DNA of 64,000 nucleotides from Candidatus Pacebacteria bacterium CG2_30_36_39 (GTDB lineage: Bacteria; Patescibacteriota; Microgenomatia; UBA1400; PJMF01): NCBI GenBank assembly GCA_001873435.1, contig MNZB01000004.1, positions 158,980-222,979 of the forward strand, written 5' to 3'. Positions 1,785 to 56,653 of the stretch are shown here, piece after piece. The stretch's first letter is position 1. Each line of letters begins with the position of its first letter. The notes beneath the pieces are model-generated. The model was not told where the DNA came from, made no database searches, and saw only the letters and a list, made by a program, of their open reading frames with translations. The translations under genes were made by a program, and so were the position numbers.

Positions 1785-3979
1785 TACTCTCCCATGCCTT
1801 GTGTTGAATTCAAATATTCTTGAATTTTAGCAGTATAAACATCTCTTGGCTTACTACCTTCTTGAACCCCAATAAAACCAGCTTCATAAAGCTGATCCAT
1901 GATTCTGGCAGCACGAGCATAACCAACAGCTAATTTTCTTTGAATTAAAGAAGCTGAAGCTTTATCAGCCTTTGAAAATAAACGAGCCGCTTCACCAAAT
2001 AAAGGATCACGATCTTCACCATTTGTTCCACCAGATCCACCACTAATAGTACCAATCTTATATTTTGTTGTAATCTCTTCTTGATAATCAGGTTTTTGAC
2101 CCTGAGATCTTAAGAAATCAACTAAAGCCTTAGTTTCTTTTTCAGAAATATAAGTACCTTGAACACGAACTGGTTTTGCCTTATCTGGTGGTAAATACAA
2201 CATATCACCGCGACCTAGTAACTTTTCAGCCCCAGGACTATCCAAAATAACACGAGAATCTGTTTGAGAAGAAACATTAAAAGCAATACGAGTTGGAATA
2301 TTAGCTTTAATTAAGCCAGTGATAACATCCACGGAAGGACGTTGTGTTGCCAATACTAGGTGAATACCAACTGCACGAGCCATTTGAGCAATGCGAGTAA
2401 TACTCTCTTCTACTTCGTTTGGAGCAAAAAGCATTACATCAGCCAACTCATCAATCACAATCACAATACTTGGCATTGAAATTAAACCAGCCAACTCATT
2501 GTATGAATCTATATTTTTAACTCCAACTTCTGCCAATAACTTATAACGATCCTCCATCAAACTTACTGCCCACTTCAAAGCTGAAACCACTTTACTTGGC
2601 TCCACAATTACTGGAGTTAATAAATGAGGAATATCATTGTAACCAGTTAATTCAACTCTCTTTGGATCAACTAAAATAAATTTAACCTCAGCTGGAGAAG
2701 CTCTGAAAAGAATAGAACTCATAAAAGCATTAATAGCTACTGACTTACCTGATCCAGTAGCACCAGCAATTAAAACGTGAGGCATTTTAGAAATATCTGC
2801 CACCACCGGTTTACCGCCCACATCAATACCAAGAGAAACAGCCAATTTTGATTTATGCTGTTTCATAGTAGGAGAAGCTATCATTTCTTTCAAAGTAACA
2901 AACTCTGCAGAATGATTGGGAACTTCAATACCCACCAAAGATCTTCCAGCAATAGGTGCCTCAACACGAATCTGTCCAGTTGGAGCGGCTAGAGCTAGAG
3001 CCAAATCCGTAGATAAACTAGTAATTTTTGAAAGACGAGTGCCTTCGGTAATCTTTAAAGCATATTGAGTAACAGCAGGACCACCATTAACCTCATCAAC
3101 TCTAGCCTTAATACCAAAGGAATCCAAAGTGTTTTCAATGATATGCGCATTAGCTTTCACATCACCACGTTGAGCTTTACCACCAGGTTTATCAGACAAA
3201 ATACTAAGAGGTGGATATTCCCAAACCGCTGGTCTACTGGCCGGCAACATATCTGTTTGACGCAATAAATTACGACCTTCTACTGGCATTACCTTCTTAT
3301 TATTAGAATCTTCAACCTTATCTTTGCTTTGGACAGGAAGTTCTTTGGGCGACATTAAAGCACCAGTTTGTTCTTCTGTTGCTCGCTCTCTACCATCATT
3401 AATAGTCAGCTTCTTACCAGGCATACCAGGCAACTTGAGTTTAGGAATACTAAAACCTTTTTTATCAGCAAAAAGACCAGCTGTTTCAGTTGCAGCTTCT
3501 TTAGCGTCTTTCTTGCGCAATAACCATTTGATAGCTTCAACCAATGACCAGCTAGACATTACTAAAAATCCAATTATTCCAAAGGAAATAAAGAAAATAA
3601 CAGTACCAGTAGAACCAAGTAATACAGCAAAATTACTATATAAAGATTTACCAATTTCTCCAGTCTTCCCTAGGCCTAAAAAGGAAAACATAAGTAATAA
3701 AGTACCAAGCAAAACATGTGGCTTAGACCAAACCCATTTTGCTCTGAGCATAGCCAAACCAGCAGAGATAAAAACAAATGGCAAAAACATCATTGCCAAG
3801 CCAAGTTTCAAACTAAGAAAAGTGTTTACTTGTTGCAGAACAACACCTTGTCCTGCAAAAGAAACCATAATCAAAACACCTAAAGTCATTAAAAAAACCG
3901 CTCCAATAGAATGTGTTGTTTCTGTTGGAATCGTTAATTTTAATTGATTTTTTTTATTGCGTTTACGTTTCTTACCCAT
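1784..3979 (-). CDS. ftsK: DNA translocase FtsK/SpoIIIE
   Basis: N-terminal TM helices. Walker A GATGSGKS and the FtsK motor region (VDPKRVELTGYNDIPHLL...). C-terminal gamma winged-helix (LYEAGFIG). Confidence 0.9.
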   Translation of the reverse strand: MGKKRKRNKKNQLKLTIPTETTHSIGAVFLMTLGVLIMVSFAGQGVVLQQVNTFLSLKLGLAMMFLPFVFISAGLAMLRAKWVWSKPHVLLGTLLLMFSFLGLGKTGEIGKSLYSNFAVLLGSTGTVIFFISFGIIGFLVMSSWSLVEAIKWLLRKKDAKEAATETAGLFADKKGFSIPKLKLPGMPGKKLTINDGRERATEEQTGALMSPKELPVQSKDKVEDSNNKKVMPVEGRNLLRQTDMLPASRPAVWEYPPLSILSDKPGGKAQRGDVKANAHIIENTLDSFGIKARVDEVNGGPAVTQYALKITEGTRLSKITSLSTDLALALAAPTGQIRVEAPIAGRSLVGIEVPNHSAEFVTLKEMIASPTMKQHKSKLAVSLGIDVGGKPVVADISKMPHVLIAGATGSGKSVAINAFMSSILFRASPAEVKFILVDPKRVELTGYNDIPHLLTPVIVEPSKVVSALKWAVSLMEDRYKLLAEVGVKNIDSYNELAGLISMPSIVIVIDELADVMLFAPNEVEESITRIAQMARAVGIHLVLATQRPSVDVITGLIKANIPTRIAFNVSSQTDSRVILDSPGAEKLLGRGDMLYLPPDKAKPVRVQGTYISEKETKALVDFLRSQGQKPDYQEEITTKYKIGTISGGSGGTNGEDRDPLFGEAARLFSKADKASASLIQRKLAVGYARAARIMDQLYEAGFIGVQEGSKPRDVYTAKIQEYLNSTQGMGE

Positions 3980-5772: not shown

Positions 5773-5787
5773 AATTTCCTTTCGAAA

Positions 5788-6414
5788 TTAAAATAATATT
5801 TCTTTTATTCCTTGTTTAAGACTTTCCGTTCCTCTTTGCTCTTTTATCCAAGTAAGAATCTTGGGAATTTTTTTAAAATCAGCAATGAATGACTCCATCA
5901 TTCTACTAGATCTTAAGGCTGCTGCGGGATGGTACATTGGTAAAACAAAAATATCCACTCCTTCCCACTGAACCTTATGCAATCTGCCATGAACTGCTGA
6001 TATTTTAACTTCTGGCAAAAATTTAGCCATACTAAAACGACCTAAGGTAACAATTATTTCAGGCTTTAAGATCTCTAGCTCCTGATTAAGATATGGTCTA
6101 TATGCCGCAATTTCAATAGGAGTAGGATCTCGATTTTCTGGAGGCCTAACTTTAACAATATTGCTAATAAAAACTTTAGCCGGGGGCAAACCAACTTCTT
6201 CCAAAACTTTTCTTAATAACTTGCCAGAACGACCAACGAATGGACGACGCTGCAAAGCCTCTTCTCTACCAGGAGCCTCACCAATACACATTATCTTCGC
6301 CCGAGAATCTCCTTCACCATGTACAATATCTGTTTTTTGAGTAGCAAGAGGTAATGTTTTGTAAGCAGCTTCTAGTTTTTGCTGTAATTCCTCAAGTAAA
6401 CCTGCATTATCCAT
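5788..6414 (-). CDS. uracil-DNA glycosylase, family 4
   Basis: GEAPGREE...RPFVGRSGKLL motif typical of family-4 UDG. Confidence 0.8.
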   Translation of the reverse strand: MDNAGLLEELQQKLEAAYKTLPLATQKTDIVHGEGDSRAKIMCIGEAPGREEALQRRPFVGRSGKLLRKVLEEVGLPPAKVFISNIVKVRPPENRDPTPIEIAAYRPYLNQELEILKPEIIVTLGRFSMAKFLPEVKISAVHGRLHKVQWEGVDIFVLPMYHPAAALRSSRMMESFIADFKKIPKILTWIKEQRGTESLKQGIKEILF

Positions 6415-6481
6415 AACTGTATGTTATCACAAAAGGGAGCCTTACGACTCCCTTTTTTATTTCTTTTTGTTTTACCAAAAC

Positions 6482-6793
6482 TTATTCAGTTAAATCTTTT
6501 GCAAGTTTAACATTGTTGTAAGTAGTCTTAGCTGCTGTTTCAATGAAATCATCAGCCAAGTCAGTTAAATCATCAGATGCTTTATCCAAAGTATCTGCCA
6601 TTTCACCATAAGAGTAAGCAGAAATTTTTTCTACTTCACCCATTTGAGCTAACAATTTATCTACTTTTGCTATATCTTCAGCAGACATTTGCTCTGGCAC
6701 ATCTTGCAAAGCAGTAACCACTGATTGATAAGTTTCTTCATCTAAGCCTTGGTTCTTTAGCTCAGCGAGAAGTTGTGTTTTAGTTGGTCCCAT
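6482..6793 (-). CDS. hypothetical small acidic protein
   Basis: 103-aa ORF, D/E rich, no recognised motif. Co-oriented downstream of the Lon-like ATPase gene. Confidence 0.4.
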   Translation of the reverse strand: MGPTKTQLLAELKNQGLDEETYQSVVTALQDVPEQMSAEDIAKVDKLLAQMGEVEKISAYSYGEMADTLDKASDDLTDLADDFIETAAKTTYNNVKLAKDLTE

Positions 6794-6821
6794 ATTTGTT
6801 CTCCTTTAAAAATATTTTCTA

Positions 6822-7478
6822 TTATTTAGCAAATCTACTCAACCAACCTCTTACTCCTGAAAAACTGGTAGCGTTTTGAGCAGCCTGTTGTTGCTTGGTT
6901 CTCTTTTCTTGAGCTTCCTGCTTTAATTTATCAGCAGCAGTCACAACTTGATCGCCATCTGTTTCTTGACTCTCATTGATAAGCTGATTAGCTGTCTCCA
7001 ATAGAGATTTAACACCCTCAGCGGCGGCTTTCAAAGCAGCGAGTTTTAGTTCGACGACTTTAGCTTCTGCTCTAGCTGGAAGACTATCAATAAAAGCTGA
7101 TAGTTGGTCCATCTTAGCAGCGGCTTTGTTAGTAATATCATAAGCACCTTGGATAACGTCTGCTTTAGCTTTTTCAATACCCATTTCAGCCTTGGTTCTT
7201 AGACTATCAGCGCCATCAACCAATTTACCTGGCCAAGAAGCAACTTCACCAGCTCCTTTTTTAACACCATCCCAAGCAGCTGCTCCAACTTCCTTTACTT
7301 TAGCCCAACTAGCACCCCAAGTCTCTCTACTTTGCTGACGCTTGGCATCACGAGCTTCTTGACGTGCTTTACCAGCATCTCTAGCATCAAATGACTTTTC
7401 AGCGGCTGCTCTTGCTGACTCAGAAGAGTAACTCTTTAGTACGTCTCCCTTTAAAAATGGTTTATTTGCTTCTCCCAT
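6822..7478 (-). CDS. hypothetical Ala/Lys/Glu-rich coiled-coil protein (LEA/phasin-like composition)
   Basis: 218 aa, amphipathic low-complexity repeats (AAEKSFDARDAGKARQEARDAKRQQ...). No signal peptide. Confidence 0.4.
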   Translation of the reverse strand: MGEANKPFLKGDVLKSYSSESARAAAEKSFDARDAGKARQEARDAKRQQSRETWGASWAKVKEVGAAAWDGVKKGAGEVASWPGKLVDGADSLRTKAEMGIEKAKADVIQGAYDITNKAAAKMDQLSAFIDSLPARAEAKVVELKLAALKAAAEGVKSLLETANQLINESQETDGDQVVTAADKLKQEAQEKRTKQQQAAQNATSFSGVRGWLSRFAK

Positions 7479-7508
7479 ATTTTCCTTTAACTTTTAGTTA
7501 CTTTATTA

Positions 7509-8003
7509 CTACTTATTCAATCCAGATCGGTATTTTTTTAATAAATTCAAAGCAAAACCAATACCACCAGTATTGCTCTTAGTTTCCATAGTAGCAGGTG
7601 CTTGAGTTGGTCGCAATGAGCTTAATGCATCAATATAGAAATCTACTTGGTCTGACTCAGCACTAGGCACTCTACCTTGTAATAAATCTTGAAGACTGTC
7701 AGCTCCATCACTTACTGAAGTTCCAGAAGATACTGTTTGTTTACTAGAAAAATCTTCCAATAAGGACAAAAGCTCATCAACTTGAGAAGCTCCTGAATCT
7801 CCATTATCTACAAAAGAATTAAGCATTTCTTCTAATTCTTTGATTGAATTATTACTAACAGTTTTTGCAACTGGAGCAGCAGCTCCACTCATCCTAGCTG
7901 AAACTTGAGCTTCAACTTCAGTTTTAATATATGCTTGTAACTCTGTAGCTAACTGAGCAAAAGCTTTTTGAAATATTTGATCATTCATATTTTTCTCTCT
8001 CAA
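7509..8003 (-). CDS. hypothetical protein
   Basis: 164-aa ORF, Ser/Asp-rich C-terminal half. No motif recognised. Confidence 0.4.
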   Translation of the reverse strand: MREKNMNDQIFQKAFAQLATELQAYIKTEVEAQVSARMSGAAAPVAKTVSNNSIKELEEMLNSFVDNGDSGASQVDELLSLLEDFSSKQTVSSGTSVSDGADSLQDLLQGRVPSAESDQVDFYIDALSSLRPTQAPATMETKSNTGGIGFALNLLKKYRSGLNK

Positions 8004-8067
8004 TAAATCACTGTTAAAAATTATATTCTTTTAGAGTTTTAAAAAAAATGTCTCAAAAAGTATCTTT

Positions 8068-9126
8068 CTAATACTTAGGCATGAATATTTTGGCATTTTC
8101 CTTAGTAATCACTACCTTATCAAAACCACGCTCAACAATAATACGCACTACTTTACGTACTGCTCCCTGCAATGTTCTTTGCAAAGTACGAATACCCATG
8201 TCATAACCCAAAGGACGAGTGATAATTGGCCAAACATCTTCATGTAAATCAAATTGCTCTGGTCTTAAACCTGCATCAGTCAATAAACCTGGCAATATAT
8301 ATTTCTTAGCAATTTGAATCTTCTCATTATCAGTGTATGAAGGCATAGAAATCTTTTCCATACGATCCATAACAGCAGTAGCAATCTTAGTAGTATTGTT
8401 AGCAGTAGCTAAGAAAATAGCATGACTTAAGTTAACTGGATAATCGATATAAGTATCTGTAAAAGCATTATTCTGAGCAGGATCAAGCAACTCAACTAAG
8501 ACACCCATAATATCCATATTAGCTTCTTCAGCTCCACGATCAATTTCATCTAACAAAATAACTGGATTACGAACACCAGCTTCACAAATTCCTTTAATAA
8601 CTCTTCCTGGCTCTGAACCAAGCAATAAGCGTGAATTACCACGAAGTTCTTTTGCTGATCCCATACCACCAAAAGGGATGCGCACCAACTGACGACCCAA
8701 TGCCTCAGATAACGAATAGGCAAAAGTAGTTTTACCTGTACCCACCAAACCAACAAGCAACAGAATAGGAGCTTTAAATTCTTCCCCGGGAGCTTGTTTG
8801 TTGCGTAAATTTAAAATAGAGATATATTCCAAAAAACGATCTTTAACTTCCTGCATACCATAGTGATGTTTATCAAAAACAGCCTTAGCTTTTTCAATAT
8901 CAGTCACGTCTTGAGATTCTTTTAGCCAAGGAATTTGGAGCACCCAGTTTACATAACGAGAAACTTTTTCATATTTTTCATCATAACTACCAAGTTCAAC
9001 ACTACGCTCAAGAGAAACAATCTCTTTTTCAACCTTACCCTTCATATCCTCTGGAAGGGAAGCTTGAATTGCCCTGTCACGAAGGTCTTTAATTTCTTGC
9101 TGAAGAATGTGTTTATAGTCTGTCAT
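8068..9126 (-). CDS. Lon-family AAA+ ATPase module without LAN and protease domains
   Basis: Aligns by eye to the Lon helical linker plus AAA+ core: YVNWVLQIPW, Walker A LVGLVGTGKTT, Walker B ILLDEIDR, sensor ATANNT, alpha subdomain GIRTLQR. The ORF ends right after the AAA+ alpha subdomain. No Ser-Lys protease domain. Confidence 0.8.
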   Translation of the reverse strand: MTDYKHILQQEIKDLRDRAIQASLPEDMKGKVEKEIVSLERSVELGSYDEKYEKVSRYVNWVLQIPWLKESQDVTDIEKAKAVFDKHHYGMQEVKDRFLEYISILNLRNKQAPGEEFKAPILLLVGLVGTGKTTFAYSLSEALGRQLVRIPFGGMGSAKELRGNSRLLLGSEPGRVIKGICEAGVRNPVILLDEIDRGAEEANMDIMGVLVELLDPAQNNAFTDTYIDYPVNLSHAIFLATANNTTKIATAVMDRMEKISMPSYTDNEKIQIAKKYILPGLLTDAGLRPEQFDLHEDVWPIITRPLGYDMGIRTLQRTLQGAVRKVVRIIVERGFDKVVITKENAKIFMPKY

Positions 9127-9141
9127 GGGCAGCTGGCAGTT

Positions 9142-9717
9142 TTACTCCAACTCTGTTGGTGGAGTCTCAACTGAATCTATCTCTTCTGGAAGATTCGAGA
9201 CAGGCAGAACCTGCTGTGTTACTACTCCCAGACCAATTAAAAACATACCGGCCATTACCATTAAAAAAGTATTCGCTACTCCACCAGTTGCAGGTAGGGT
9301 TGCGGTACTACTCTCGGTAGCACCACCAACACCAGTGGTAGTGGTAGTTGTGGTAGAAGAAGTGCTTGTAGTAGTAGTGGAATTAATTAACAAAATATAG
9401 TCCAAAGATTCCAAATTAGAAGCCAACTTCAATGGATGGGCACTGGCTGTTAATGCAGTAATCGGCGTATAGCTCCAATCACCGGCAGAATCTGCTAGCA
9501 CTGCTACCGTTAAATCATCAATTGTAATATCGATCGTAGCATCTGGAGAAGCTTTACCAATTAAAGTAGGAGTTGTATCTGTCGTGCTAATACTAATTAA
9601 AGCACCAACAGAAGTACCGCCAGCACTAATTAGCTGCAAAGTTGCTGCCATAGCAACAGCTTTTACACTAAATAAAATTACCAAAAACAAGATAGCGATA
9701 CGCAAATATCGAAACAT
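9142..9717 (-). CDS. secreted Thr-rich surface protein with LPATG sortase-type sorting signal
   Basis: Probable start at MFRYLRIAILFLVILFSVKAVA (signal peptide). Poly-Thr/Ser linker. LPATGG followed by a hydrophobic helix near the C-terminus. The ORF-track start at 9771 lies upstream. Confidence 0.5.
   Translation of the reverse strand: MFRYLRIAILFLVILFSVKAVAMAATLQLISAGGTSVGALISISTTDTTPTLIGKASPDATIDITIDDLTVAVLADSAGDWSYTPITALTASAHPLKLASNLESLDYILLINSTTTTSTSSTTTTTTTGVGGATESSTATLPATGGVANTFLMVMAGMFLIGLGVVTQQVLPVSNLPEEIDSVETPPTELE
9335..9380. repeat. low-complexity trinucleotide repeat (ggt/agt units) encoding the poly-Thr/Ser linker
   Basis: Reiterated ggtagtggtagttgtggtag...gtagtagtagtgg units visible in the sequence. 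Confidence 0.5.
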
Positions 9718-9767
9718 AAAACTACTATACATTAAATCATGGAAACAAAACAACCCGTCAATATAGA

Positions 9768-10706
9768 TCAAAAATTAGTAGGGGTTTTACCTTCAATCAT
9801 TTCCCTACCAAGTAAACCAGTTTGAGCACCAAAATATCTAATTACCGAACCAGCATTTCTAACACCCCATTCCACAGATTTTTTTGGTTCCAAGTGCAAA
9901 TATTGAGCTGCTGAATAACCAGTAGCAAATGCATCACCAGCTCCAGTGTCATCAACTGACTTTGCTGTTGCTCCAAAAAACTTTAATTCTTTATTTCCAT
10001 GAATATATACTTCACCGCCTTCAGCACCCTTGGTAACCACAATTTGAGGAATTTCTTTAATTAAATCAGCTTGCTGATCTTTTACCAAATCCCATTCTTT
10101 ACTATTCAAAAACAAAACCATACAAGGAAGCTCACTGACCTTTAACTCACCACTAGCCAACAATGCCAATTCTTGCTTGCCCGGATTCCAAGATAAAACA
10201 GTCTCTGGATGAATCTTTACTAATTCAAAAATTCTACGCAAAGCCTCCAATCTTCCAGCAATACTAGAGAGATGGATCCAACGAGCTTGGGAAACCCAAT
10301 ATGGAGGAATATCATAGGAATCCAGCTGAGAAGCTGCTCCTCGATGAACTAGAACTGTTCTACTACCATTTTTATCAACCAAAATTACTGAGCCACCAGT
10401 TGTTTCTTGTTTTTCTTTAACTAAAAGCTGGGTATCAACTTGCTCTTTTTGCAAATTACGTACAATCATTTCTGCAAAATCATCCCTACCAATTTCACTA
10501 ATCAAAGCTGCTTTAAAACCTAATCTAGAAAAACCAACAGCAGAATTAGCTGCTCCACCACCAATCCTAGAAACAAAACTTTCCATTTCAACTTTATCAC
10601 CCTGAATAGTAAATCTATTTTCACCATTGAGATTTTCAACATCAAATTTTTCAGAATGAATAAATATATCAACCAAAGAAGAACCAATAGAAATGAAGTC
10701 GTACAT
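9768..10706 (-). CDS. PfkB-family carbohydrate/nucleoside kinase (ribokinase-like)
   Basis: GGGAANSAVG and DTGAGDAFATG motifs of the ribokinase/PfkB family. Confidence 0.8.
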   Translation of the reverse strand: MYDFISIGSSLVDIFIHSEKFDVENLNGENRFTIQGDKVEMESFVSRIGGGAANSAVGFSRLGFKAALISEIGRDDFAEMIVRNLQKEQVDTQLLVKEKQETTGGSVILVDKNGSRTVLVHRGAASQLDSYDIPPYWVSQARWIHLSSIAGRLEALRRIFELVKIHPETVLSWNPGKQELALLASGELKVSELPCMVLFLNSKEWDLVKDQQADLIKEIPQIVVTKGAEGGEVYIHGNKELKFFGATAKSVDDTGAGDAFATGYSAAQYLHLEPKKSVEWGVRNAGSVIRYFGAQTGLLGREMIEGKTPTNF

Positions 10707-49886: not shown

Positions 49887-50846
49887 ATGAAAAAAAATAA
49901 AAAAGAACAAAGATTATCTACCAAACCTACTGGAGAAACTGCTTTTTTGGCATACTATCGAACTCTTTTCGCCAATGAAGCTGAATTTCAATCCTGGGAA
50001 AAAGCTTTAAGATCAGACAAAAACCCAGTTTTACGCTTTAATCCTAAATATGAAGAAATATTAAAACAACTTTGGAGTGAAGCTGAATTACCGTGGAAAA
50101 CTCTTTCTTGGCATCCATACGCCCTAGAATGGCCTAAAAATGTTCCTCCAAAGACAACATTGCCTGGTTTCAAAGAGCGCTATTTTTATGCCATGAATGC
50201 CTCTTCCTTGTTGCCAGTACTAGCTCTTGATCCTGGTCCTGGAGACTTAGTGTTAGATGCTTGCGCTGCTCCAGGAGGAAAAGCCTTGTTTATTGATGAT
50301 TTGCTTGATAAAAAAGGATTACTTATTGCTAATGACCTTTCAAACTTCCGTCGAGGTCGAATGCGTCAGATCTTCAAAGCCTATGATAAAGAGCACATTG
50401 AGATTTGGGGACAAAAGGCAGAAACCATTTTTTATAACCAACCAGAGTATTTTGATAAAATTCTCATTGATGCTCCATGTAGTAGTGAAAAACATATTAT
50501 TAGAGAACCAAAAGAATTAAAAAAATGGAGTTACACTAGAATTCAAACTCTATCTGCTAGACAAAAAAATCTCCTGAAATCTCTTTGGTTGGCTTTAAAA
50601 CCTGGTGGCACCATGGTTTATTCCACTTGTGCTGTTACTCCAGAGGAAAATGAGGGAGTTGTTGAAGAATTTATTAAAGAGCAACAAGATGCCATACTCC
50701 AACCATGGACTTTGGATACTCCTGGAGGGGCTGGTTTGTCATTTCAAGAAAATTTGTCTTTTTCTCTGGAAAAAGTACGTAGAGTCCAACCACATAAAGA
50801 TGGTTTCGACCCCATGTTTGTAGCAAAATTTGTAAAAAAAGTTTAG
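49887..50846 (+). CDS. RsmB/NOP2/Sun-family RNA cytosine-C5 methyltransferase (catalytic domain only)
   Basis: DACAAPGGK SAM motif, DAPCSSE and TCA catalytic Cys motifs. Confidence 0.8.
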   Translation: MKKNKKEQRLSTKPTGETAFLAYYRTLFANEAEFQSWEKALRSDKNPVLRFNPKYEEILKQLWSEAELPWKTLSWHPYALEWPKNVPPKTTLPGFKERYFYAMNASSLLPVLALDPGPGDLVLDACAAPGGKALFIDDLLDKKGLLIANDLSNFRRGRMRQIFKAYDKEHIEIWGQKAETIFYNQPEYFDKILIDAPCSSEKHIIREPKELKKWSYTRIQTLSARQKNLLKSLWLALKPGGTMVYSTCAVTPEENEGVVEEFIKEQQDAILQPWTLDTPGGAGLSFQENLSFSLEKVRRVQPHKDGFDPMFVAKFVKKV

Positions 50847-51115
50847 GAATCAGCCTGATTGGTTGTTGAAGTCAAATTTTTCTGCTCGTAATCCTCTATT
50901 TCTGTTAAGAATTTTTCTAATTTGGGTAAATTTTCTGCATAAAACTGCCCTGCTTGATCAACTTCCATAGCTAAGAACTGACCTAAAGTATCAATATCTT
51001 GTTCAGTCATTTGTGGAATTTTATAAACCAATTCTGGTTTTTTGCTCTCATCCAGTTGGATGCTTTGACGAATCAATACTTCTAGAGCTGCTTTTTTTTC
51101 TTCTAAACTAGGCAT
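50843..51115 (-). CDS. hypothetical protein
   Basis: 90-aa acidic ORF. Overlaps the upstream gene by 8 nt. Confidence 0.35.
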   Translation of the reverse strand: MPSLEEKKAALEVLIRQSIQLDESKKPELVYKIPQMTEQDIDTLGQFLAMEVDQAGQFYAENLPKLEKFLTEIEDYEQKNLTSTTNQADS

Positions 51116-51668
51116 TACTTACTCCTATTGCTGGCGTACGAAACATACTGGCAGCTTTTTGTACTTCTGTTGACTTGACTGTTGCCTGATGAGCTCTCCA
51201 GATTTCTGTAGCTCTTTTAACCCCGGCTTTCATTCTTGGAAAATCTTTTACGAACTGCATTGTAGTTTCAATGGCGTGAGTTGGTAGTGCTCCACCAGTA
51301 AATAACTCCAATACTTCGCTGCCCCATGCCCAAGCTTTACTAACATCAGGTGTTAAGTCAAAAGAAGTAAGCTTTGCTAGATCTGCTCCGATTGATACTA
51401 CTTCACCAATTCCTGGTACTAAATCGACTACTGAAATACCAATGTTTAGGACTGTCCTAGCAAATGCTATTAGAGCAATTTTTACTTTTTCGTCTTGCAA
51501 CATTTTTCCAAGTAGAAAATTACTTTCTTGCTTGGACTGAAACATTTCTCCGATGCGGCCAGCGACATCTTTTAAGCCAGACTTAACGTACTCTGGTATT
51601 TTGCCGAAGCGCTCTGATCGCCATTCTGAGTTGTTGTTTGGTTTCTTTTCTTGTTTTTGCTCTACCAT
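51108..51668 (-). CDS. hypothetical protein
   Basis: 186-aa ORF with a central hydrophobic segment (LNIGISVVDLVPGIGEVVSIGADLA). GC slightly above background. Confidence 0.4.
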   Translation of the reverse strand: MVEQKQEKKPNNNSEWRSERFGKIPEYVKSGLKDVAGRIGEMFQSKQESNFLLGKMLQDEKVKIALIAFARTVLNIGISVVDLVPGIGEVVSIGADLAKLTSFDLTPDVSKAWAWGSEVLELFTGGALPTHAIETTMQFVKDFPRMKAGVKRATEIWRAHQATVKSTEVQKAASMFRTPAIGVSNA

Positions 51669-51842
51669 ACTTCATTAGTATATAGTGAAAAGCGTGCTAA
51701 AAAAACTTCTAGAAAAAATATTCATAGGTTCTAAAAAACAATCAAATTCTTCCGAGTTAATTAAAAAAATCAAAACTTTTAGTAAAAGGCTCTATGTTCT
51801 AGAAGATGAGTTTTTTGCTAAAAATGAAAATAAACAAGGATA

Positions 51843-53492
51843 ATGCCAGAGACAGCATCAACTGATCAGCTGACTGAGTGGAGAGAAAAACTAGAGCTTA
51901 AAAAGATAGATGTTTTGCGGCTCAAGCAAGAAGCTGCTTCTTTAGATCAGGAAAAAAGTCTTAGGGCAAAAAGAGTTTTAGATCAATATTGGAATGTTAA
52001 AGAAGGTAAATCTTCAGAGGATGCAGAATCAAAAGATTTAGTTGCTCTTTTTGAATCACTACCGCCTGAGCTTCAAGAGCAGGTTCTAGAAAATCTTATC
52101 AGTATCCAATTAACCTGGGGATGTAATGGTCTATGTCCATTCTGTGCCTATGAACCAGATAAGGGTGTTAAAGCAAAATTTTCTTTTGAGTCTCTTAAGG
52201 CGTTTTTAGCTAAGTATGGAGAAAGATTGAAAAAAGCCAAAGAAAGTAGTTCTGGCTCTATTCCTCACTATTGGGATAGTGATCCATTTGATTATCTGGA
52301 TCAAGGCCATGATTATTTAGATTTTTATCTTGAATGGAGAAAATATTTTCCCAATGAACCTATTTTTATTAGCACAGCTGTTCCAAAGGGTTCGACCGAT
52401 GCTTTCAAAAGATTTATTATTTATGTCTGGAATCACTATTATAAAGAAAATCAAATGGTTCAAGTTCGTGTTTCTGTTTCCAAAGCTAATATCCAAAGAA
52501 TTGAAGCTGTTTTTGAAGAAATTAAACAAGAGATGGGATGGCCAATTAATAAGGATATCGAAGAAATACTTAGTCCTTTCTTGAGTTTTTCTCCAAGAAT
52601 TGAAGATGATGAAATTGATGATCTAGGACCAAGAATTAATAAACATGATGATTTTGCTAGTTCAAATTCACCCTCATGTTCTGATGGAGTTGTTTTGACT
52701 CCGTTACAAATTAAGGCTATTACGATGACTGCTGCCAATGTCTATGAGCCTTCTGGTGAAAAAACAATGATAATTAATCAAGATACTCCAGTTAATATGA
52801 TTCCTAGTTACACTAGTAAGGCGTATTTTAATGGTTTTAGTTCTAATACAGATTTGGTTTTAAGAACTGAGATGCGTCAGGCATTTTTGCCAATGGTGAT
52901 AAATTCTGATGGTAGAGAAATTATTTTGCCTGATAAATATGAAAATACTATTTATAGACTTGGTAGATGGAGTTTTTCTTTGGATTTAGTGTTAATTGAT
53001 ATTGCTAACTTAATTAATCCCAATTCTCCAGCATATGAAAATACTACTAGAGAAAAAGAAGAGTATCAGGTATTGGCTTTACAAGCTGCCAATATTCATT
53101 TGGATGAAATAAAGGATGATCTTAAAAAAGCAGAAGAGTTATTTAATAGCGGCTTACTTACTCCGGAGCAAATGAGTAAACTTGAGTTTTATTATATGCT
53201 TACCTATTTGCGTGTTATGCAAATTTCGCTAGTAACTAATACTGCTAGCGGTTTTTTTGTGAGTGCAGAAGAAATATCTCTTCAAGCAAATATTCTTAAA
53301 GAAATAAATAAGAAGAATATTGATCAAATCGAGGAAATAATAGAGCTTTTAAGGGTTAGTGTTGATTTAAAGGCGACTGCGGAGAATAAGAAAATTTCAA
53401 TTGAGTTGTTAGTTAAAACTCTTGGTTTTACTGAAGATAAAAAGCCAAGGTGGCTGGGTATATTGCAAAGAAGGGCTGGGGTAATTAGTTAG
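51843..53492 (+). CDS. radical SAM-like protein of unknown function (CX3CX2C motif, long N-terminal coiled coil)
   Basis: ISIQLTWGCNGLCPFCAYE: hydrophobic strand plus CX3CX2C. A GGEP-like segment (WDSDPFDYL) sits about 45 aa downstream. No SPASM/twitch Cys cluster. 549 aa. Confidence 0.55.
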   Translation: MPETASTDQLTEWREKLELKKIDVLRLKQEAASLDQEKSLRAKRVLDQYWNVKEGKSSEDAESKDLVALFESLPPELQEQVLENLISIQLTWGCNGLCPFCAYEPDKGVKAKFSFESLKAFLAKYGERLKKAKESSSGSIPHYWDSDPFDYLDQGHDYLDFYLEWRKYFPNEPIFISTAVPKGSTDAFKRFIIYVWNHYYKENQMVQVRVSVSKANIQRIEAVFEEIKQEMGWPINKDIEEILSPFLSFSPRIEDDEIDDLGPRINKHDDFASSNSPSCSDGVVLTPLQIKAITMTAANVYEPSGEKTMIINQDTPVNMIPSYTSKAYFNGFSSNTDLVLRTEMRQAFLPMVINSDGREIILPDKYENTIYRLGRWSFSLDLVLIDIANLINPNSPAYENTTREKEEYQVLALQAANIHLDEIKDDLKKAEELFNSGLLTPEQMSKLEFYYMLTYLRVMQISLVTNTASGFFVSAEEISLQANILKEINKKNIDQIEEIIELLRVSVDLKATAENKKISIELLVKTLGFTEDKKPRWLGILQRRAGVIS

Positions 53493-53853
53493 AAAATTGT
53501 TCGACTGCTGCAATAACGTCTTCTAGTTTGGCAGTTCCCTTTACAAAATATCCTTTTGCGCCAAGTGCTGCAGTTTTTTCACGATCTTCGTAGGAGTCAA
53601 CTGCGGTAACCACTAGGACTGGAACGTCTTTTGTTTCTATGTTTTCTCTTAGTTCTTTTAAGACTTGAAAGCCATCTTTTTCTGGCATTAATAAATCTAA
53701 TATTATTACTGCTGGTTGGTTGTTTTTTGCTGAATCTAAAACTTGATTGCCATTTTTAAAGTATTCTACTTCGAAACCGGCTAGTTCAAATTTTTTCTTT
53801 GATAGCTTGCTTAAAAATAAATCGTCTTCTACTAAAAATATGACTTTTTTCAT
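53485..53853 (-). CDS. single-domain response regulator (CheY-like receiver)
   Basis: VEDD acidic pair, ILDLLMPEKDG phospho-acceptor Asp, T and K motifs. 122 aa, no output domain. Confidence 0.8.
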   Translation of the reverse strand: MKKVIFLVEDDLFLSKLSKKKFELAGFEVEYFKNGNQVLDSAKNNQPAVIILDLLMPEKDGFQVLKELRENIETKDVPVLVVTAVDSYEDREKTAALGAKGYFVKGTAKLEDVIAAVEQFSN

Positions 53854-53854
53854 T

Positions 53855-54223
53855 TTATGAAATTGCCTTTTTTAAATATTCAATGATTTCTGATAATTGT
53901 GTTTCTGATTTTACAAAATATTTTTTTACTCCCAAGGCAGCTACTCTCTGTTTGTCTTCCTCAGAGTTCAGGGCGCTAACTATTATTATCAAAACTTTTC
54001 CAGCCGAAATTTCTTCTTTTAATTCTTCCAAAACCTGAAAACCATTTTTTTTGGGCATTACTAAATCAAGTACTATTACTGCAGGGTTTTCTTTTTTTAC
54101 CTGACTTGCTACTTCTAAGCCATCATCAAAAAATTGAACGTTTAGTCCTGCTAATTCAAATTTTTTCCTTGATAGTTTACCCAAAAATAGGTCGTCTTCT
54201 ACTAAAAATATTTTTTTATTCAT
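53855..54223 (-). CDS. single-domain response regulator (CheY-like receiver), paralog of the downstream gene
   Basis: VEDD, VLDLVMPKKNG, same length and about half identical to 53485..53853. Confidence 0.8.
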   Translation of the reverse strand: MNKKIFLVEDDLFLGKLSRKKFELAGLNVQFFDDGLEVASQVKKENPAVIVLDLVMPKKNGFQVLEELKEEISAGKVLIIIVSALNSEEDKQRVAALGVKKYFVKSETQLSEIIEYLKKAIS

Positions 54224-54737: not shown

Positions 54738-56321
54738 TTATTCCTCGTAAAAAGAGGAGTAAATAGTATCAGTTCCATAGCTCAAATCATTTGAATAAAG
54801 TCTGTAATGAGAATTATTTGGCTTAACTTTGAACTCTCCAATTAAAATAGTTTTTTTATCATTAGTTTTAATAAAAGATTTATTTAAATATTCACCAGAT
54901 GATTTTATGAGACTTGCATATGTGTAAGCCCTGCTGTGCACACATATTAATTCTCCATTCCAAATACATGGTCTTGCTTGGTCGCATATTTCAACAACAA
55001 ATAAACTATCTTTGTTTATTTTTAAGTTTTCTATTTTTTCCAAACCATATATGTAAGTATTTATATCGTCATCATTGTAAAAAATATATCTAACTTCATT
55101 TCTATTTATTTCATTCGCAATAAATGATACTGATGATTTTAAATCACCATAACCATCTTTTGCTTTTATTTTCCCATAATAAAAGCCTGCGTGAAAAATG
55201 ATAAACAAAATAACAATAAAAAATATTTTTTTGTATTTTTCAAACAAATAAACCAATAAAAAGGATGGAAAAATATATAAAGTACTCAAGTAATAGTCAA
55301 GCTTGTCTCCCTTGTAAAATCTTAAAACAATTAAAAGTAAGAAAAAGTATATTCCAAGATAAAGGTGAAGTATGTTATTTTTTCTCGATCCAATAGATTT
55401 TATAAAAAGAGTAATACCGCCAATAAAAAATATTAACCTACCAAAATATAAAAAGTAAAAATTCGTGCCAGTTAACACTCTCTCAAAAAAAGACGGGAAA
55501 AAAGTCAGTAAATAGTCTGGTTTTGATACACGATCATAATATCTACTGTGCTCACCAGTAAAATAATTAATAATTTGATTTGTGTTATTCCAACTATTCT
55601 CTATTTCTATCAAAATATATGGAAATAAAGTTAATAAAGACAACAAAATACCAATAACCCAATACTTCCTTGAGCTAATATTTTTCCAAAAACTCCAAAC
55701 TAAAATCATTAATGCAAATGGAATAATTATCACAGCTTGATAATGAAAATGAACAGAAATAGCTACAGACAAAAGACCTACAATTGGTTCCCAACCAATA
55801 ATGCCCTTATTACTAGTTAAAACCTTAATTATTCTTACCCAGGAATACAAAGCCAACGTTGAAAAAAATGGAATAGTATTAGGATTCCATGCAAATGAAC
55901 CAAATATTGTTGGAATAGGCATTAAACCATACAAAAAAGCCACAACCCAACGTTGATTAATAAAACCCAACTCACTAAAAAGCAAAACTAAAAATATTGG
56001 AGTTGCCGATTCGATAAATATAACAAAAAACTTCATTACAAATGGATTATTTGCTGATAAAAAAGAAAGTACTAGATGAACTTGGTAATATAATGGAGGT
56101 AAATAAAAATCTCCAACACTAGCTTTTGGTCCATATCCAACAAGCCAGTCATTTTTATTTATTTTTGATTCCATTAAAATTAAATCTCTTGCGCCATCTT
56201 GTCCAAATGAATTTGAATAAAATCCATACCAAAGCCTAAAAGATAAAATTAATATAAATAATAAAAATAATTTTTTGCAAAAAGAAAGATTGTTTATAAA
56301 ATTAAAAATTTTATTTGGCAT
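54738..56321 (-). CDS. GT-C membrane glycosyltransferase (GT39/GT83 ArnT/PMT-like)
   Basis: 527 aa, more than 10 TM helices. First-loop acidic motif (GQDGARDLILME). Extremely AT-rich codons. Confidence 0.65.
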   Translation of the reverse strand: MPNKIFNFINNLSFCKKLFLLFILILSFRLWYGFYSNSFGQDGARDLILMESKINKNDWLVGYGPKASVGDFYLPPLYYQVHLVLSFLSANNPFVMKFFVIFIESATPIFLVLLFSELGFINQRWVVAFLYGLMPIPTIFGSFAWNPNTIPFFSTLALYSWVRIIKVLTSNKGIIGWEPIVGLLSVAISVHFHYQAVIIIPFALMILVWSFWKNISSRKYWVIGILLSLLTLFPYILIEIENSWNNTNQIINYFTGEHSRYYDRVSKPDYLLTFFPSFFERVLTGTNFYFLYFGRLIFFIGGITLFIKSIGSRKNNILHLYLGIYFFLLLIVLRFYKGDKLDYYLSTLYIFPSFLLVYLFEKYKKIFFIVILFIIFHAGFYYGKIKAKDGYGDLKSSVSFIANEINRNEVRYIFYNDDDINTYIYGLEKIENLKINKDSLFVVEICDQARPCIWNGELICVHSRAYTYASLIKSSGEYLNKSFIKTNDKKTILIGEFKVKPNNSHYRLYSNDLSYGTDTIYSSFYEE

Positions 56322-56410: not shown

Positions 56411-56479
56411 TTGCGGGACTAGGAGTCGAACCTAGCCTGCGAGATTATGAGCCTCACGTGCACCGTACACTATCCCGCG
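56411..56479 (-). tRNA. tRNA with CAT anticodon (Met, fMet or lysidine-Ile), 1:72 mismatch
   Basis: Reverse complement CGCGGGA-TA-GTGT-ACGGT-GCAC-G-TGAGG-CTCATAA-TCTCG-CAGG-CTAGG-TTCGACT-CCTAG-TCCCGCA-A. T-loop GGTTCGACTCC, U33 and A37 flank the CAT anticodon. C1 is opposite A72 as in bacterial initiator tRNA. Short D-loop. No encoded CCA. Confidence 0.65.
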
Positions 56480-56579: not shown

Positions 56580-56653
56580 GCCAGGGTAGCTCAGTTGGTT
56601 AGAGCATCGGATTCATAAACCGAAGGTCGTGAGTTCAACTCTCACCCCTGGTA
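56580..56653 (+). tRNA. tRNA-Met (CAT), elongator-like
   Basis: GCCAGGG-TA-GCTC-AGTTGGTTA-GAGC... D-arm is identical to E. coli elongator tRNA-Met. Anticodon loop TTCATAA. T-arm GGTCGTGAGTTCAACTCTCAC. Acceptor CCCTGGT-A. Confidence 0.75.

Follow-up and report, generated by a model that had tools for sequence, protein, structure and literature searches.

A conserved small peptide gene coupled to the gene of a divergent, predicted single-cluster radical-SAM enzyme in Candidatus Pacebacteria

The window analyzed here is a stretch of 64,000 nucleotides from contig MNZB01000004.1 of Candidatus Pacebacteria bacterium CG2_30_36_39, and all positions are given in the numbering of this stretch unless a locus of a relative is named. 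At 51843..53492 the window carries the gene of a 549-residue protein with the cysteine motif of the radical S-adenosylmethionine (SAM) enzymes. A small gene for a conserved peptide lies directly upstream on the same strand and is joined to the enzyme gene through the sequence TAATG, in which the stop codon of the peptide and the ATG of the enzyme have one base in common. The features of this pair of genes are as follows.

51685..51843, plus strand: small peptide gene, 52 codons from GTG 51685 (or 49 from GTG 51694), TAA at 51841-51843, product MKSVLKKLLEKIFIGSKKQSNSSELIKKIKTFSKRLYVLEDEFFAKNENKQG
51757..51822, plus strand: conserved amphipathic block, peptide residues 25-46, LIKKIKTFSKRLYVLEDEFFAK, from alignment A6 of 21 distinct peptides
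51843..53492, plus strand: enzyme gene, divergent radical-SAM protein of 549 residues, ATG start
51843..52094, plus strand: N-terminal helical region of the enzyme, residues 1-84, from the AlphaFold model and the alignment
52095..52775, plus strand: radical-SAM-like alpha/beta core, residues 85-311
52122..52145, plus strand: C94-x3-C98-x2-C101, predicted [4Fe-4S] ligands, invariant in 144/144 relatives
52269..52292, plus strand: Y143-W-D-S-D-P-F-D150 motif, at the putative position of the GGE motif for SAM binding
52677..52688, plus strand: C279-S-D281-G282 motif; C279 in 106/127, D281 in 114/127, and G282 in 110/127 relatives
52935..53489, plus strand: C-terminal all-helical bundle, residues 365-549, with R375 nearly invariant

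The original prediction for this locus, made from the sequence alone, described a radical-SAM-like product of 549 residues with a single CX3CX2C motif (WGCNGLCPFCA) after a hydrophobic strand. The open reading frame (ORF) and the motif are present as described. The motif occupies residues 92-102, the hydrophobic stretch ENLISIQLT precedes it, and a beta-strand is predicted for residues 85-94. Residue conservation was counted over 154 collected proteins, and the denominators are the relatives aligned at each position. All three cysteines of the triad are invariant in the aligned family members, and the spacing is therefore not a product of chance, which the original prediction had named as an outcome that would speak against it. 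The absence of further cysteine clusters was also borne out. The enzyme has four cysteines in total, at positions 94, 98, 101, and 279; the family median is six, and many members have only four. The SPASM and twitch domains require C-terminal cysteines for one or two auxiliary [4Fe-4S] clusters, and a single cysteine is found downstream of the triad. An auxiliary cluster of either type is therefore excluded for the enzyme of the window. C279 is the only conserved cysteine outside of the triad and is a candidate hydrogen atom donor.

A GGEP-like segment had been noted downstream of the cluster motif. A conserved segment does lie there, the Y143-W-D-S-D-P-F-D150 motif, and the GGE itself appears to be replaced by S-D-P. 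Within this motif Y143 is conserved in 130/143 relatives, S146 in 125/143, and P148 in 130/143, and position 147 is either Asp or Glu in 143/143. The other conserved positions of the enzyme are T178 (143/145), P181 (140/145), R209 (120/142), S211 (138/141), N216 (133/143), R219 (131/143), G262 (119/128), and G305 (124/125).

The full-length AlphaFold model of the enzyme is confident, with a predicted local distance difference test (pLDDT) value of 84.5 and a predicted template modeling (pTM) score of 0.83. Alternating strands and helices make up the core at residues 85-251, followed by a disordered loop at residues 255-269 and by strands at residues 280-285, 290-295, and 306-311. In the model C279 is placed after this loop of low confidence and immediately before a beta-hairpin. 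The partial (beta/alpha)6 TIM barrel of the radical-SAM enzymes appears to be reproduced only in part by the model, and the predicted resemblance to that fold is remote; a Foldseek search of the model against the PDB returned nothing at an expect value (E) of 1e-3 or below. The N-terminal region, for which a coiled coil of 90 residues had been proposed, appears in the model as several short helices and a small strand instead. It bears a family motif around A-G-S-x-D-P, which reads AASLDQ in the enzyme of the window. One relative, P0008 (locus L011, alignment A1), is without the A-G-S-x-D-P helix region, and no small peptide is encoded at its locus. This pattern would fit the binding of the peptide at that region. 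The correlation is weak because other loci without the peptide (L002, L006) retain the region.

The enzyme was compared with the curated sequence models of Pfam and NCBIfam. The match to the radical-SAM family PF04055 is marginal (E = 0.046, residues 90-133 only), and its score of 14.3 bits does not reach the gathering threshold of 29.5 bits. A single NCBIfam match was obtained, to TIGR04517 for the PoyD-type amino acid epimerases of peptides that are synthesized ribosomally and modified post-translationally (RiPPs), with E = 7.5e-8 over residues 73-224. The score of 31.7 bits is about a tenth of the curated cutoff of 325 bits. A search of the PDB sequences with the single enzyme returned nothing at E ≤ 10, and a word-indexed protein search returned only 11 relatives, none of which has a Pfam domain or a name. 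An exhaustive profile search provided 588 cluster representatives (50% identity) at E ≤ 1e-3, with 119 at E ≤ 1e-30. When 48 of the more distant relatives were scanned, 28 matched TIGR04517 (best E = 7e-13), 12 matched PF04055 at E ≤ 1e-3 (best E = 2e-7), and one weakly matched the cyclophane maturase AmcB. Its own distant members thus connect the family to the radical-SAM superfamily. The best match of the family profile among PDB sequences is the peptide epimerase YydG/EpeE, which is weak (E about 0.09). In this alignment the family a-S-D stands opposite G-G-E, and D147 is aligned with the Glu of the SAM-binding GGE.

By sequence comparison the nearest curated neighbor of the family is the group of PoyD-type epimerases, and by the curated thresholds the family belongs to neither PF04055 nor TIGR04517. 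The original prediction could not place the protein in any characterized radical-SAM subfamily, and this still holds: every curated model falls far below its cutoff, and NCBI lists the proteins that share 90% or more identity with the enzyme as "hypothetical protein". The comparisons support the assignment of the enzyme to a strongly diverged, unannotated lineage of the known radical-SAM superfamily, and they likewise support a radical-SAM enzyme with one cluster.

The proteins at least 90% identical to the enzyme were deposited from metagenome-assembled genomes of Candidatus Pacebacteria, with the peptide as the adjacent accession. Other family members come from Collierbacteria and Roizmanbacteria, and all three are bacteria of the Microgenomates group within the candidate phyla radiation (CPR). 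One nearly identical pair of protein and peptide (NCN45335.1/NCN45336.1) is labeled Candidatus Pacearchaeota archaeon, and the other records read Candidatus Pacebacteria. Since the window has bacterial genes (GroEL/ES, FtsH, DivIC-like, TsaD/E), the archaeal label looks like an error of binning or naming. No relative of the family was found on viral contigs, and carriage by a virus was rejected.

A short peptide gene had been suggested in the 174 nucleotides upstream of the enzyme ORF (51669..51842), and the 19-codon ORF MSFLLKMKINKDNARDSIN was named for it. This ORF exists, in a different frame, but no other locus has a counterpart to it, and it was rejected as the partner gene. The short gene that does exist is the conserved 52-codon ORF, which was called by the JGI gene caller and is recorded at NCBI as NCN45336.1. 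Similar peptides are seen upstream of the homologs of the enzyme. A profile of six peptides was searched against 11,754 stop-to-stop segments of at least 20 residues, in all six frames, from 44 loci and the window. Each of the 36 matches (E from 1e-20 to 4e-3) falls on the segment that immediately precedes a family gene and shares its strand, and the next-best match has E = 0.17. Among the 26 distinct loci that are left once redundancy is removed, 20 have the peptide. It is missing from L002/3, L006, L011, L017, L018, and L026, where a rebuilt profile finds none either. The stop codon of the peptide overlaps the start of the enzyme by 1-26 nucleotides in 20 of 23 sequence variants and is separated from it by 0-4 nucleotides in the other three. 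The peptide gene is translationally coupled to the enzyme gene in these 20 of 26 loci. The ratio of nonsynonymous to synonymous substitution (dN/dS) for the peptide frame is 0.30-0.41 in four closely related pairs and exceeds 1 in the other two frames (two informative pairs).

The peptides have 31-60 residues and consist of a variable N-terminus, the conserved block, and a short polar tail. The consensus of the block is about K-[IL]-K-K-I-x-x-L-L-x-x-L-[FY]-x-x-E-[DEQN]-x-[hydrophobic]-[hydrophobic]-x-K. In the numbering of the window I29 is nearly invariant, position 37 is always Phe or Tyr (Y37 in the window), and E40 is invariant. The frequent terminal N-G/E/D of the peptides results from the overlap with the downstream A-ATG-N start. 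No family of Pfam or NCBIfam, curated precursor families included, is matched by the peptides beyond scattered weak hits. Nine copies have been called in public data, all as "hypothetical protein". A uniformly cationic antimicrobial helix is ruled out as the identity of the peptide by a net charge that runs from -3 to +8 across the loci. In one locus (L035) the whole module is tandemly duplicated (5778..7587 and 8063..9983); each enzyme paralog keeps its own peptide, and the two peptides differ at 8 of 42 residues.

About 13 distinct loci, with the window among them, consist of the peptide-enzyme pair only. Seven others (L002/3, L005, L026, L027, L028/29, L030/31, and L034) have a common gene order of [peptide]-enzyme-GNAT acetyltransferase-precursor-YcaO-nitroreductase-type dehydrogenase-M16 peptidase. 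The precursor of these YcaO loci has 62-64 residues and a C-terminus rich in Cys, Ser, and Gly, and five of the distinct YcaO loci hold both the small peptide and this separate Cys-rich precursor. With the peptide profile, no likeness to the small peptide is detected in the leaders of the YcaO precursors. The azole-type RiPP clusters stand on CPR-like contigs (L002 8347..11940, L005 8230..11910, and five further distinct loci), and their recorded Pfam hits include no E1-like or Ocin-ThiF-like partner protein.

In L030 (2309..4468) and L031 (5983..8142) one in-frame ORF of 720 residues comprises the enzyme and the GNAT domain. A further relative, P0006 of L004 (612 residues), retains a short GNAT-like remnant at its C-terminus (2704..2856). 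In a second clade (P0056, P0057, and P0059; 913-922 residues) an N-terminal class-I SAM methyltransferase is fused to the family domain. Such fused members are encoded at L045 4468..8766 and L046 2752..7050, where they adjoin a 111-residue PqqD-family protein (PF05402), a QueC-like protein, a pyridoxal-dependent decarboxylase, and an ABC exporter. The conserved small peptide was not found with this clade at L045 and L046. An M16 peptidase occurs only in the clade with the YcaO clusters, and the ABC exporter and the PqqD protein occur only beside the relatives fused to a methyltransferase.

In three lineages the enzyme gene is divided into two overlapping ORFs, each time at a different position; the lineages are represented by L007/L008/L009/L019 (L007: 5369..6004 and 6001..7065), L012/L013/L036, and L020/L041. 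The L007-type split yields products of 211 and 354 residues with an ATGA overlap. Since it is found on 17 contigs, this may be a functional form with two subunits and not an error of assembly or a pseudogene. In L012 a weakly PMT_2-like membrane glycosyltransferase is encoded a few genes downstream of the family member.

The other genes near the pair in the window were also examined. Two genes on the minus strand at 50843..51668, for products of 186 and 90 residues, are transcribed divergently from the pair and have no informative family hits. Downstream, two receiver-domain genes converge on the enzyme gene.

53485..53853, minus strand: stand-alone receiver-domain gene, 122 residues, PF00072, E = 4e-21
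53855..54223, minus strand: stand-alone receiver-domain gene in tandem with the former, 122 residues, PF00072, E = 2e-18

The first of these overlaps the 3' end of the enzyme gene by 8 nucleotides; neither an output domain nor a nearby kinase was found. Coordinates and PF00072 hits agree with the original prediction on both the divergent pair and the convergent orphan receivers. A functional link of the enzyme to the genes of 186 and 90 residues, to the receiver pair, or to a PNPOx-like gene was rejected, as none of these recurs near any homolog. The start of the divergent 186-residue gene (51668, minus strand) and the GTG of the peptide (51685) are separated by only 16 nucleotides. This gap has no room for two intergenic promoters, so that the promoters lie inside coding sequence or one start is miscalled. 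Promoter-like and terminator-like sites do not exceed the shuffled expectation. A riboswitch or other RNA element upstream was considered and discarded, since the only Rfam matches in the 64-kb window are two tRNAs. These are the divergently oriented tRNA genes at 56411..56479 (minus strand) and 56580..56653 (plus strand). A multi-pass membrane protein of 527 residues is encoded at 54738..56321 (minus strand) and has no recorded Pfam or PADLOC hit. A role in a defense system was dismissed as well, as neither the enzyme nor the peptide has a PADLOC hit.

The characterized systems closest to the family are the PoyD-type epimerases (PoyD, OspD, and NstF; TIGR04517), whose model is the only curated one matched by the enzyme of the window and by most of the distant relatives. 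PoyD homologs have a single strictly conserved extra cysteine (Cys372 in PoyD) as the proposed hydrogen atom donor, and YydG uses Cys223 in this way (PMC8326336). The proteusin epimerases have no auxiliary cluster, and in EpeE the donor Cys223 is found on a flexible loop with Asp210 as a proton relay (PMC13012085). The present family is similar in that it has one [4Fe-4S] motif, no auxiliary cluster, and one conserved extra cysteine, for which C279 is the candidate counterpart; both groups have a substantial extra C-terminal region. The combination of the triad with one conserved Cys, which belongs to a C-x-D-G motif immediately downstream of a disordered loop, resembles the arrangement of the PoyD and EpeE donors. 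The PoyD-like epimerase NstF is encoded within the YcaO/oxidase azole cluster of nostatin A (PMC11583998), a setting that resembles that of the YcaO-clustered clade. The differences are that only the core of the enzyme (residues 73-224) aligns with the PoyD-type proteins, with S-D-P instead of GGE, and that the C-terminal domain is a long helical bundle in a family distributed in CPR bacteria of the Microgenomates group. The peptides of the family have no nitrile-hydratase-like or Nif11 leader, and no such leader is encoded next to the gene in the window.

The other known systems are less similar. The twitch-like domain of EpeE (YydG) contains an auxiliary [4Fe-4S] cluster, for which the four cysteines of the enzyme of the window do not suffice. 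The epe operon encodes a protease and an ABC transporter, whereas the locus in the window has neither, and there is no sequence similarity between EpeX and the small peptides. PqqE with PqqA and MftC with MftA differ through their SPASM auxiliary clusters, a PqqD-type chaperone, and further processing enzymes, none of which is found in the window. The [FY]-x-x-E signature of the peptide is distinct from the E-x3-Y motif of PqqA and from the C-terminal motif of MftA. The enzymes with twitch or SPASM domains (BtrN, SuiB, ChlB, SkfB, CteB, and TigE), which are mostly peptide maturases, are set apart by the lack of cysteines for an auxiliary cluster in the present family, and their sole sequence match is the weak one to AmcB from 1 of the 48 distant relatives.

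A peptide-type substrate is the best-supported reading of the enzyme. It is favored because peptide maturases account for the nearest sequence models and for most of the top structural matches, because relatives are embedded in or fused to peptide-tailoring functions, and because a conserved peptide gene is coupled to the enzyme gene. With moderate confidence we interpret the locus as a two-gene module that consists of the conserved peptide and a peptide-modifying radical-SAM maturase with a single [4Fe-4S] cluster. In the proposed mechanism C94, C98, and C101 would bind the [4Fe-4S] cluster, and SAM would bind to the unique iron with help from the S-D-P motif in place of GGE. Reductive cleavage of SAM would provide the 5'-deoxyadenosyl radical, which would take a hydrogen atom from the peptide substrate. 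The peptide encoded with the enzyme would be the most likely substrate, held through its amphipathic helix (I29, Y37, and E40) by the helical N- and/or C-terminal domains of the enzyme. In the clade with the YcaO clusters the azole precursor rich in Cys and Ser may be an alternative or additional substrate. The assignment of the small peptide as the substrate is our first choice for its role, in what is an evenly balanced call.

The abstraction of a C-alpha hydrogen followed by the return of a hydrogen from C279 would amount to an L-to-D epimerization, as with PoyD/OspD and EpeE. Epimerization is the leading guess because an auxiliary cluster is absent and exactly one further conserved cysteine, C279, is present near D281. 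By analogy with these enzymes it is proposed with low confidence; crosslinking or another chemistry may occur instead.

Several observations weigh against a two-gene maturase module of this kind. The window has no homolog of YcaO, GNAT, the dehydrogenase, or M16, no leader protease or exporter among the neighboring genes, and no PF05402 (PqqD-like RiPP recognition element) hit in the enzyme or its neighbors. The most conserved part of the peptide is a long helix and not a typical short core; neither Cys nor Gly is conserved in the peptide, whose net charge differs between loci over the range given above. C279 is absent from 17% of the relatives (present in 106/127, 83%). An intact enzyme is found without the peptide in six distinct loci, and it follows that the enzyme does not require the peptide as a subunit and could have other substrates.

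The long conserved helix is also the starting point of a different explanation, in which the enzyme is a peptide maturase with a substrate encoded elsewhere, such as the Cys/Ser-rich YcaO precursors of the clustered clade, and the small peptide is a partner acting in trans. It would dock on the helical domains, either as a small subunit or as a detached helix for recognition or activation. The amphipathic helix spans 22 residues, carries an invariant Glu on the hydrophobic side, and resembles a binding helix more than a core, and the nearly invariant Arg375 of the helical domain could pair with this Glu. The small peptide coexists with a separate Cys-rich precursor in five distinct YcaO loci, the GNAT fusion ties the enzyme to the azole pathway, and the clade fused to a methyltransferase is accompanied by a PqqD protein and not by such a peptide. 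However, the roughly 13 loci that show the pair only, including the window, have no other candidate substrate nearby, and the six loci with an intact enzyme and no peptide argue against an obligate subunit. To our knowledge, no radical-SAM maturase has been described with a free helper helix of this kind. We regard a trans-acting partner as a serious alternative, though less likely than the role of substrate. An improbable explanation is that the upstream ORF is a cis-acting regulatory leader for the enzyme, through ribosome arrest or translational coupling, and that its product has no function of its own. The stop codon of the peptide overlaps or abuts the start of the enzyme in every case, the conserved block lies 6-19 residues from the C-terminus and so would be within the ribosomal exit tunnel at termination, and most loci have no accessory RiPP genes. 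This explanation does not account for an amino acid conservation with helical periodicity over about 22 residues between loci whose enzymes are ~30% identical. Short motifs in which Pro, Trp, or Arg is frequent are typical of arrest peptides, and overlapping or abutting genes for precursor and maturase are also ordinary in RiPP loci.

Two further explanations concern the enzyme itself. A CPR-specific metabolic or modification enzyme of the radical-SAM type whose target is RNA, a housekeeping protein, or a substrate other than a peptide, with the RiPP-like contexts of some relatives being secondary, is unlikely in view of the coupled and conserved peptide gene, the repeated association or fusion with the YcaO cluster, GNAT, methyltransferase, and PqqD, and the peptide epimerases as the nearest sequence models. 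It is more improbable still that the protein is a degenerate relative that keeps the cluster-binding loop for structural, redox, or sensing purposes and does not cleave SAM. The replacement of GGE by S-D-P, the matches to Pfam and NCBIfam below threshold, and the lack of a significant Foldseek match would be consistent with such a protein.

For the maturase module set out above a more speculative extension, which we hold only tentatively, is that the pair is a previously unrecognized RiPP-like system, largely of the Microgenomates group, with a possibly new modification, not necessarily epimerization, on a conserved amphipathic peptide that has the invariant [FY]-x-x-E signature. The conserved part of the peptide would then be a putative core and not a leader, so that the product would have a conserved physiological role and would not be an arms-race bacteriocin. 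It could be a signal, a cofactor-like molecule, or a factor for host interaction.

To the extent that curated libraries, source annotations, and literature searches show, this enzyme and this peptide form a new pairing, in a lineage that is uncultivated. A sizable family that public annotation has overlooked is now defined and tied to the radical-SAM superfamily. The CPR bacteria have tiny genomes, and little is known of their secondary metabolism or peptide chemistry. Because the enzyme is paired with a specific unannotated peptide, its function is directly testable by the co-expression of two genes, and the fusions and cluster contexts (YcaO, GNAT, methyltransferase, and PqqD) provide further entry points. 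If the peptide is the substrate, the pair would represent a new family of RiPPs in this uncultivated lineage, and it could be a second, independently diverged lineage of radical-SAM peptide epimerases that use a single cluster only.

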